Assembly (NCBI RefSeq): GCF_003334315.1
Contig: NZ_QOWR01000010.1
Source: Escherichia coli
GTDB lineage: Bacteria; Pseudomonadota; Gammaproteobacteria; Enterobacterales; Enterobacteriaceae
DNA: 64,000 bases
Strand: one strand, 5' to 3'
Positions 47,698 to 47,838 of this stretch are shown here, piece by piece. The notes below the pieces were generated by a model. It was not told where the DNA came from, made no database searches, and saw only the letters and a list, made by a program, of their open reading frames with translations. Made by a program: the position numbers and the translations under genes. How positions within the stretch are numbered: position 1 is the stretch's first letter; each line of letters begins with the position of its first letter.

Positions 47698-47838
47698 ATC
47701 AACACCAACCGGAACCTCCACCACGTGCTCGAATGAGGTGTGTTGACGTCGGGGGAAACCCTCCTGTGTACCAGCGGGATAGAGAGAAAGACAAAGACCG
47801 GAAAACAAACTAAAGCGCCCTTGTGGCGCTTTAGTTTT
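47698..47838 (+). ncRNA. sraL: Candidate small RNA SraL (RyjA), antisense to the soxR 3' end
   Basis: Terminator hairpin aaagcgcccttgtggcgcttt plus T run at 47812-47839 on the + strand, overlapping the soxR stop. A possible -10 (tacaat) lies at 47686-47691. The 5' end is a guess. Confidence 0.4.

Follow-up and report, generated by a model that had tools for sequence, protein, structure and literature searches.

The interval 47698-47838, on the plus strand of a 64,000-nt stretch of Escherichia coli DNA (hereafter the window), carries the gene of the small RNA SraL, also known as RyjA. Taking all our results together, we are nearly certain that they have one joint explanation: this is the chromosomal sraL (ryjA) gene, which encodes a trans-acting sRNA, is preceded by a sigma-S-type promoter and ends in an intrinsic terminator that the convergent soxR gene can also use. 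SraL/RyjA was known before as an annotated sRNA with characterised functions, and the comparative details given below are descriptive refinements. Our own evidence comes from the identity of the gene, the conservation of its promoter and terminator, covariation in its fold, synteny, and the complementarity of the E. coli sRNA to tig. The gene and its two neighbours in the window are as follows.

45936 to 47285, minus strand: ghxP coding sequence, which flanks sraL on its 5' side at a distance of 412 nt (ORF listing)
47698 to 47838, plus strand: sraL (ryjA) sRNA gene, 141 nt (Rfam RF01408 match and identity to MG1655 ryjA)
47831 to 48295, minus strand: soxR coding sequence, 154 aa, whose TAA stop is the complement of 47831-47833 and which overlaps sraL by 8 nt

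When the whole window was compared with Rfam, the sraL family RF01408 matched at 47698-47838 on the plus strand with 153.3 bits (E 1.1e-34; gathering threshold of the family, 39 bits), along model positions 1-142. The ncRNA ryjA (b4459) of E. coli K-12 MG1655, annotated at 4277926-4278066, maps to the same 47698-47838, and the region around the gene (47600-47900) is 100% identical to MG1655 in all 301 bases. In that genome soxR lies at 4277469-4277933, which also gives an 8-nt overlap with ryjA. The initial annotation of this DNA had proposed a plus-strand sRNA, SraL/RyjA, that overlaps soxR at the 3' ends of both genes, and had called for an alignment with the known SraL. The full-length Rfam match, the complete identity to the annotated MG1655 ryjA and the literature (PMC3753932) bear this proposal out, and its limits agree base for base with both the Rfam match and the MG1655 annotation. 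Of 5426 complete E. coli genomes, 5421 contain the 1-kb sraL locus. Folding of the single sRNA sequence gave a z-score of -1.94, with 7 out of 200 shuffles folding equally well, which is modest support if taken alone. None of the data of this analysis speaks against the SraL/RyjA identity: for E. coli, we observed no difference between this gene and SraL/RyjA (RF01408; b4459) in sequence, coordinates, neighbours, promoter type, terminator or fold.

To place the gene in a comparative context, we collected loci from a one-genome-per-species collection with the pattern CCGGAACCTCC-N20-45-GGGGGAAACCC, made from two conserved SraL segments. The 22 bases of the pattern are invariant by construction, and the resulting set leaves out more divergent orthologues. 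The search returned 101 loci, 99 of them with an sraL orthologue by blastn, while the other two were chance matches; ten of the most divergent orthologues still scored 104-165 bits against the Rfam sraL model. We then projected the consensus fold of Rfam onto an alignment of 96 sequences that covers positions -80 to +25. Across these 96 species, 94.6% of the cells were paired and 10 pairs showed double changes, values that none of 500 shuffles reached, while control folds in which the 3' partners had been slid by 1-3 columns gave only 37-52% pairing. The elements of the sRNA body that stand out in the alignment are these.

47699 to 47746, plus strand: 5' domain closed by helix 1, which pairs 47699-47705 with 47740-47746 (covariation)
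47762 to 47779, plus strand: helix 6 hairpin, which pairs 47762-47767 with 47774-47779 (covariation)
47786 to 47801, plus strand: A/G-rich stretch GAAAGACAAAGACCGG, mostly unpaired (96-sequence alignment)

Helix 1 presented compensatory double changes in four of its seven pairs, with 95.7% of cells paired, and helix 6 showed compensatory changes in four of six pairs. Helix 3 was weak (75% paired), and helices 2, 4 and 5 are uninformative because they never vary; helices 2 and 5 lie inside the search pattern. The A/G-rich stretch is not in the search pattern, and 11 of its 16 positions are invariant, with all 16 kept in at least 88 of the 96 sequences. It is the most conserved unpaired part of SraL and is distinct from the published tig site, and its conservation makes it a candidate second seed for other targets or a candidate chaperone-binding site.

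The promoter was located through its conservation across the same alignment.

47663 to 47668, plus strand: -35-like element CTGGCG (conserved as CTGGCa in the 96-species alignment, with G47666 invariant)
47686 to 47695, plus strand: -10 element TACAAT (47686-47691) followed by the A/T-rich discriminator TAAA (47692-47695) (alignment conservation)

Both elements are separated by a 17-nt spacer, and the transcription start of SraL is at 47698. Within the -10 element, A47687, A47689 and T47691 are present in 96 of 96 sequences and T47686 in 82, while the positions of the TAAA discriminator are kept in 71-94 of them, so that the element conserved among the 96 enterobacterial species reads TAnAnT followed by TAAA. 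A sigma-70 consensus scan gave no plus-strand promoter for sraL, because CTGGCG matches TTGACA at only three of six positions. Degenerate -35 elements have been described for RpoS promoters (PMC3753932), and judging from the alignment, the degenerate -35 together with the conserved -10 and discriminator fits a sigma-S-type promoter as in that report. In Salmonella, an rpoS mutation lowers SraL levels ~500-fold, and ChIP shows RpoS at the promoter in vivo (PMC3753932); in E. coli K-12, RNA-seq showed stationary-phase induction of SraL (PMC11230228). The picture for the present gene is that SraL would be transcribed from its own sigma-S-type promoter, starting at 47698, and would accumulate in stationary phase and under stress. 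Promoter-like -10 elements had been pointed out near 47652-47691 in the initial annotation. TACAAT at 47686-47691 stands, as it is conserved; TATACT at 47651-47656 belongs to a variable block, and its lack of conservation across the 96 sequences led us to discard it as a promoter element. It is the one sequence observation of that annotation that did not hold. Just upstream of the sraL -35, an A/T-rich block at 47629-47650 with the consensus GAAAAAtTTcGGCtAAAAA is conserved in most of the 96 species; possible roles for this block are those of an UP element or of a site for a regulator that also serves the divergent promoter.

Regarding the upstream neighbourhood, the spacer between ghxP (45936-47285) and soxR (47831-48295) covers 47286-47830 and measures 545 bp, precisely the length initially reported for it. 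ghxP was found upstream of sraL in 75 of the 78 loci with enough flanking sequence. Most genera, Salmonella included, carry in addition a divergent gene (STM4267 in Salmonella) for a 222-aa GST-like protein; this gene begins ~110-122 nt upstream of sraL, and in loci with it ghxP is located ~1.1-1.3 kb from sraL. Loci L004, L027, L072 and L099 served for the comparison of the region upstream of sraL. In contrast, E. coli lacks the GST-like gene, as do Escherichia in general and some Citrobacter and Kosakonia, and in these ghxP lies 413-570 nt from sraL.

The ghxP-sraL spacer also holds a cluster of short motifs. GCAAACGNT has 11 matches in the 64-kb window against 4.4 expected, and three of the 11 (47402-47410, 47445-47453 and 47544-47552) fall within 150 nt of each other in this spacer, with a one-mismatch copy, CGAAACGTT, at about 47348-47356. 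We take these matches to resemble PurR operator half-sites. One of them directly adjoins, on the downstream side, the -10 of a minus-strand promoter-like site that points toward ghxP (TTGAAA-18-GATAAT, 47481 to 47452). Elsewhere in the window, the Rfam search yielded six matches to naRNA4, a REP/BIME-type nucleoid-associated RNA, and one to the selenocysteine insertion element SECIS_2.

44 to 120, 144 to 220 and 244 to 320, plus strand: naRNA4, three matches in tandem where the window begins (Rfam)
29670 to 29740, 29783 to 29853 and 40388 to 40459, minus strand: naRNA4 (Rfam)
27147 to 27201, plus strand: SECIS_2 element (Rfam, 87.1 bits)

The SECIS_2 match implies a selenoprotein gene at this place, presumably fdhF.

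SraL would act by short imperfect pairing with mRNA leaders, and the best documented case is tig. In Salmonella, SraL represses this gene through 7+3 bp formed just upstream of the Shine-Dalgarno sequence, as proven with compensatory chromosomal mutations (PMC3753932). We scanned the E. coli tig and rho leaders for pairing with SraL. Full-length RNAduplex runs gave whole-molecule duplexes that were no better than those of shuffled sequences (fractions of 0.23 for tig and 0.65 for rho) and were discarded in favour of a windowed, accessibility-corrected scan of both leaders, which placed the tig-pairing region as follows.

47721 to 47732, plus strand: predicted tig-pairing region, sRNA nt 24-35, CCACGUGCUCGA (accessibility-corrected interaction scan)

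In the best E. coli site, this segment is predicted to pair with tig -30 to -18 (CCGAGCACUGUGA) through 7+3 bp at -10.6 kcal/mol, which is the geometry of the Salmonella interaction (PMC3753932). In this in silico comparison with the MG1655 tig leader, the pairing energy was reached by one of 25 shuffled leaders, which lends modest support. The segment itself is only moderately conserved, with 39-83 of the 96 sequences agreeing per column. Since the published geometry was recovered in E. coli, the regulation of tig is likely conserved there: SraL would repress tig, which encodes trigger factor, by pairing just upstream of its ribosome-binding site.

A second target is known from Salmonella, where SraL binds the leader of rho by base pairing and so keeps Rho-dependent termination from occurring prematurely (PMC6582626; PMC12360218), and where ProQ supports the action of SraL on rho (PMC7192607). 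In the windowed scan, the pairings predicted for the E. coli rho leader were equalled by 8 of 25 shuffled leaders and are thus not distinguishable from them. This also applies to one prediction that joins rho -152 to -135 with the A/G-rich stretch GAAAGACAAAGACCGG at 47786-47801, likewise equalled by 8 of 25 shuffles.

What is known about the life of the RNA comes from published work. SraL/RyjA, first found in E. coli in 2001, is described as an RNA of ~140 nt that builds up in stationary phase and bears A-tails at its 3' end (PMC3753932). Its level is affected by ProQ (PMC6315103) and depends in part on Hfq. An Hfq co-immunoprecipitation from Salmonella in early stationary phase yielded zero SraL reads (PMC2515195), so direct binding by Hfq rests on other work. 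In E. coli, full-length RyjA is one of the RNAs that gain most in stability when pcnB is mutated, which points to polyadenylation-dependent decay (PMC5389530). SraL would be stabilised by Hfq and bound by ProQ, with decay proceeding via polyadenylation by PAP I and via PNPase. It resembles ProQ-associated sRNAs such as RaiZ in that it is highly structured, has a long terminator hairpin and responds to ProQ in its level; unlike the RaiZ type, it is made as a primary transcript from a promoter of its own in an intergenic region, instead of being a 3'-UTR fragment, and it is also sensitive to Hfq. The sigma-S dependence of SraL, its regulation of tig and rho, and the effects of Hfq, ProQ and PAP I on it were established mostly in Salmonella, and we infer that these mechanisms operate alike in E. 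coli.

SraL ends at a strong intrinsic terminator, formed by 47807-47837 and the U tail behind it; this plus-strand 3' end is known from the annotation and from the literature. The hairpin and the tail that belongs to the opposite strand are listed here.

47807 to 47837, both strands: 13-bp terminator hairpin, usable by sraL on the plus strand and putatively by soxR on the minus strand (terminator scan on the plus strand; folding of both strands)
47797 to 47811, minus strand: U-rich tail AGUUUGUUUUCCGGU behind the core hairpin of the soxR transcript (read from the sequence, with a putative function)

The stem comprises 13 bp (47807-47819 with 47825-47837) and closes a 5-nt loop, and its energy is nearly equal on the two strands, with -18.4 kcal/mol on the plus and -19.0 kcal/mol on the minus strand. 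As first described, a strong hairpin sits exactly at the soxR stop: the core, aaagcgcccttgtggcgcttt, spans 47812-47832, and the complement of the TAA (47831-47833) falls inside the 3' arm of the stem. The T runs noted on both strands are likewise there in the sequence, AGTTTTGTTCATCTT on the plus and AGTTTGTTTTCCGGT on the minus strand, and the U-rich tails that follow the core stem are AGUUUUGUU and AGUUUGUUUU, respectively. A generic terminator scan flagged the hairpin on the plus strand only; the minus strand went unflagged because T residues are counted after the longest stem, where there are 4 T in 8 bases versus the 5 required. The initial reading of this hairpin as a bidirectional terminator fits the symmetric stem, the U-rich tails on both strands and the widely conserved tight convergence of the two genes. 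Our literature search found no direct measurement of the 3' end of the soxR mRNA, and from the sequence we would expect soxR to terminate at the shared hairpin. The hairpin would be palindromic enough to serve the convergent soxR as well as sraL, so that both genes would be packed tail to tail. Like other bidirectional intrinsic terminators, it presents a GC-rich stem between an A tract and a T tract and is placed between convergent units; it differs from them in that one of the two transcripts is an sRNA, and the terminator hairpin of this sRNA probably also works as a module for chaperone binding.

Across the 96 species, the core stem, CTAAAGCGCC/GGCGCTTTAG, hardly varies, which is sequence constancy and not covariation. 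ProQ recognises, and prefers, hairpins of about 12 bp (PMC7192607). The constraints that would more likely explain this constancy are termination in both directions, with its A tract and T tract, combined with the recognition of the 3' hairpin by a chaperone.

The arrangement of sraL and soxR is conserved in a general way and variable in its details. soxR lies directly downstream of sraL and convergent to it in 98 of the 99 orthologous loci, and the distance between the 3' end of the sRNA and the soxR stop ranges from -30 to +511 nt among these 98 species, distributed as follows.

Gap of -30 nt: 5 species, Kosakonia and relatives, in which SoxR reads through the hairpin and has 165 aa
Gap of -8 nt: 12 species, namely Escherichia, the C. 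amalonaticus group and a few others
Gap of -2 to +1 nt: 34 species
Gap of 3-16 nt: 18 species
Gap of 23-57 nt: 17 species
Gap of 84-149 nt: 10 species
Gap of 511 nt: 1 species

The gap is at most 16 nt in 63 of the 98 species and at least 23 nt in 28. According to this range, the overlap with the coding sequence is lineage-specific, although the tail-to-tail packing is conserved. In Salmonella, where sraL lies between soxR and STM4267, the soxR stop is found 31 nt beyond the end of the sRNA, whereas in E. coli it is inside the stem. In the five loci with a 165-aa SoxR (L048, L057, L073, L076 and L102, from Kosakonia and related Enterobacter sp.), the reading frame crosses the hairpin in another frame and stops 30 nt inside the sRNA, with the C-terminal tail V/AQKTKAPxGAL in four of the five. 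Four further records with odd labels contain typical enterobacterial sraL-soxR loci: L033, from a 'Bacillota bacterium' MAG, which is 100% identical to E. coli sraL-soxR; L059, from 'Chryseobacterium sp. 18061'; and L008 and L009, from 'Proteobacteria bacterium' MAGs. These probably reflect contamination or mis-binning in public assemblies.

The single orthologous locus with another partner is that of Citrobacter sedlakii NBRC 105722 (L034:1602-1742). Here, sraL and its terminator are kept, with 95.8% identity and 149 bits against Rfam, and neither soxR, soxS nor pdeC was found in the ~1.6 kb downstream of sraL. In their place we observed a convergent ORF for a 303-aa LysR-type protein that stops at the same TAA of the stem, with the same 8-nt overlap as E. 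coli soxR. The retention of sraL and its terminator without soxR argues that the invariance of the terminator is not imposed by soxR coding.

One could argue that a gene so placed is mainly a cis antisense RNA, in which pairing of the 3' hairpins, or collision of the two transcriptions, would couple sigma-S-driven sraL to the stability or the termination of soxR mRNA. There is a precedent in E. coli: GadY, an RpoS-dependent sRNA, pairs extensively with the 3' UTR of gadX and alters the processing of its mRNA. Like GadY, SraL is a sigma-S-dependent sRNA of stationary phase whose gene faces the 3' end of a gene for a regulator. The two differ in that the overlap of SraL consists of the terminator hairpin alone, its extent is not conserved, and the validated targets of SraL are in trans. 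Some of our observations do agree with an action on soxR. About 31-40 nt are perfectly complementary between the 3' ends of sraL and soxR; the genes converge in 98 of 99 loci, with the short gaps given above in most; and the near-invariant, non-covarying terminator stem could reflect an extra constraint, although ProQ binding or two-way termination would fit it too. Against this, the complementarity is confined to a hairpin that is very stable within each RNA (-18 to -19 kcal/mol), which disfavours intermolecular pairing, and in E. coli the overlap reaches only 8 nt into the soxR coding sequence. The soxR stop can lie anywhere from -30 to +511 nt, with a gap of at least 23 nt in 28 species, and in C. 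sedlakii both sraL and its terminator persist in a locus that lacks soxR. Moreover, the parts of SraL that are conserved and covary, together with the validated site for pairing in trans, sit in the body of the sRNA, outside the soxR overlap, and in the 98 species compared no complementarity to soxR mRNA was found beyond the common terminator. A literature search, too, found no report of a coupling between SraL and soxR.

Another observation that could be taken to support an action in cis comes from the genome-reduced strain DGF-298, in which deletion of ryjA coincides with constitutive activity of the SoxS regulon (PMC11481515). However, the removal of ryjA also cut soxR by eight codons, so the phenotype is confounded by an 8-aa truncation of SoxR, which the authors dismissed as its cause (PMC11481515). 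C-terminal changes in SoxR such as G143D have been reported to be constitutive or activating (PMC13223516), and given such changes, the truncation of the soxR 3' end (47831-47854) in DGF-298 may deserve another look.

By comparing both sides, we consider it improbable that SraL acts mainly as a cis antisense RNA, and the coupling of SraL to soxR mRNA stability through the overlap, as suggested in the initial annotation, is not favoured. A narrower version would have sigma-S-driven convergence, or pairing of the shared 3' hairpins with the possible assistance of ProQ, modulate the 3'-end formation or the stability of soxR mRNA in stationary phase; we give this version only a slight chance, and the comparative data make soxR modulation unlikely as the selected function of the shared hairpin. 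If true, superoxide sensing by SoxR would be tied to the general stress response.

It is also conceivable that the plus-strand RNA is a functionless by-product, the hairpin serving only to terminate soxR and insulate ghxP and the upstream DNA being spacer or ghxP regulatory sequence. The hairpin is indeed a plausible soxR terminator, ghxP is downstream of soxR on the same strand, and the sigma-70 consensus scan gave no plus-strand promoter. Nevertheless, the 110 nt that precede the hairpin show both conservation and a fold kept by compensatory changes, a conserved sigma-S-type -10 is correctly spaced from the mapped start, and the sRNA is kept where soxR is absent. The covariation, together with the published Northern, ChIP and target-mutation data on SraL, refutes the idea of a mere soxR terminator, and we regard it as having virtually no chance of being right. 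Equally negligible is the chance that the RNA has a dual function and encodes a small protein: the E. coli sRNA does contain a complete ATG-initiated ORF of 26 codons (47733 to 47813, MRCVDVGGNPPVYQRDREKDKDRKTN), yet no Shine-Dalgarno-like sequence precedes its ATG, which aligns with CTG, TTG or ACG elsewhere, indels shift the frame, 57 of the 99 orthologues have no ATG ORF of at least 10 aa inside the sRNA, and the remaining ones use two frames with differing starts and stops, so a dual function was rejected on the lack of conservation of start codon and frame among the 99 orthologues.

We therefore return to the gene of SraL, a sigma-S-type, trans-acting sRNA, as the reading of 47698-47838. 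The recovery of an annotated sRNA to the exact base by reading raw sequence alone acts as a positive control. On the side of genome organisation, the sequence-invariant stem of the terminator offers the opposite strand a stop codon that is already in place. Far less work has been done on SraL in E. coli than in Salmonella, and the conserved stretch at 47786-47801 could guide searches for the targets of E. coli SraL.
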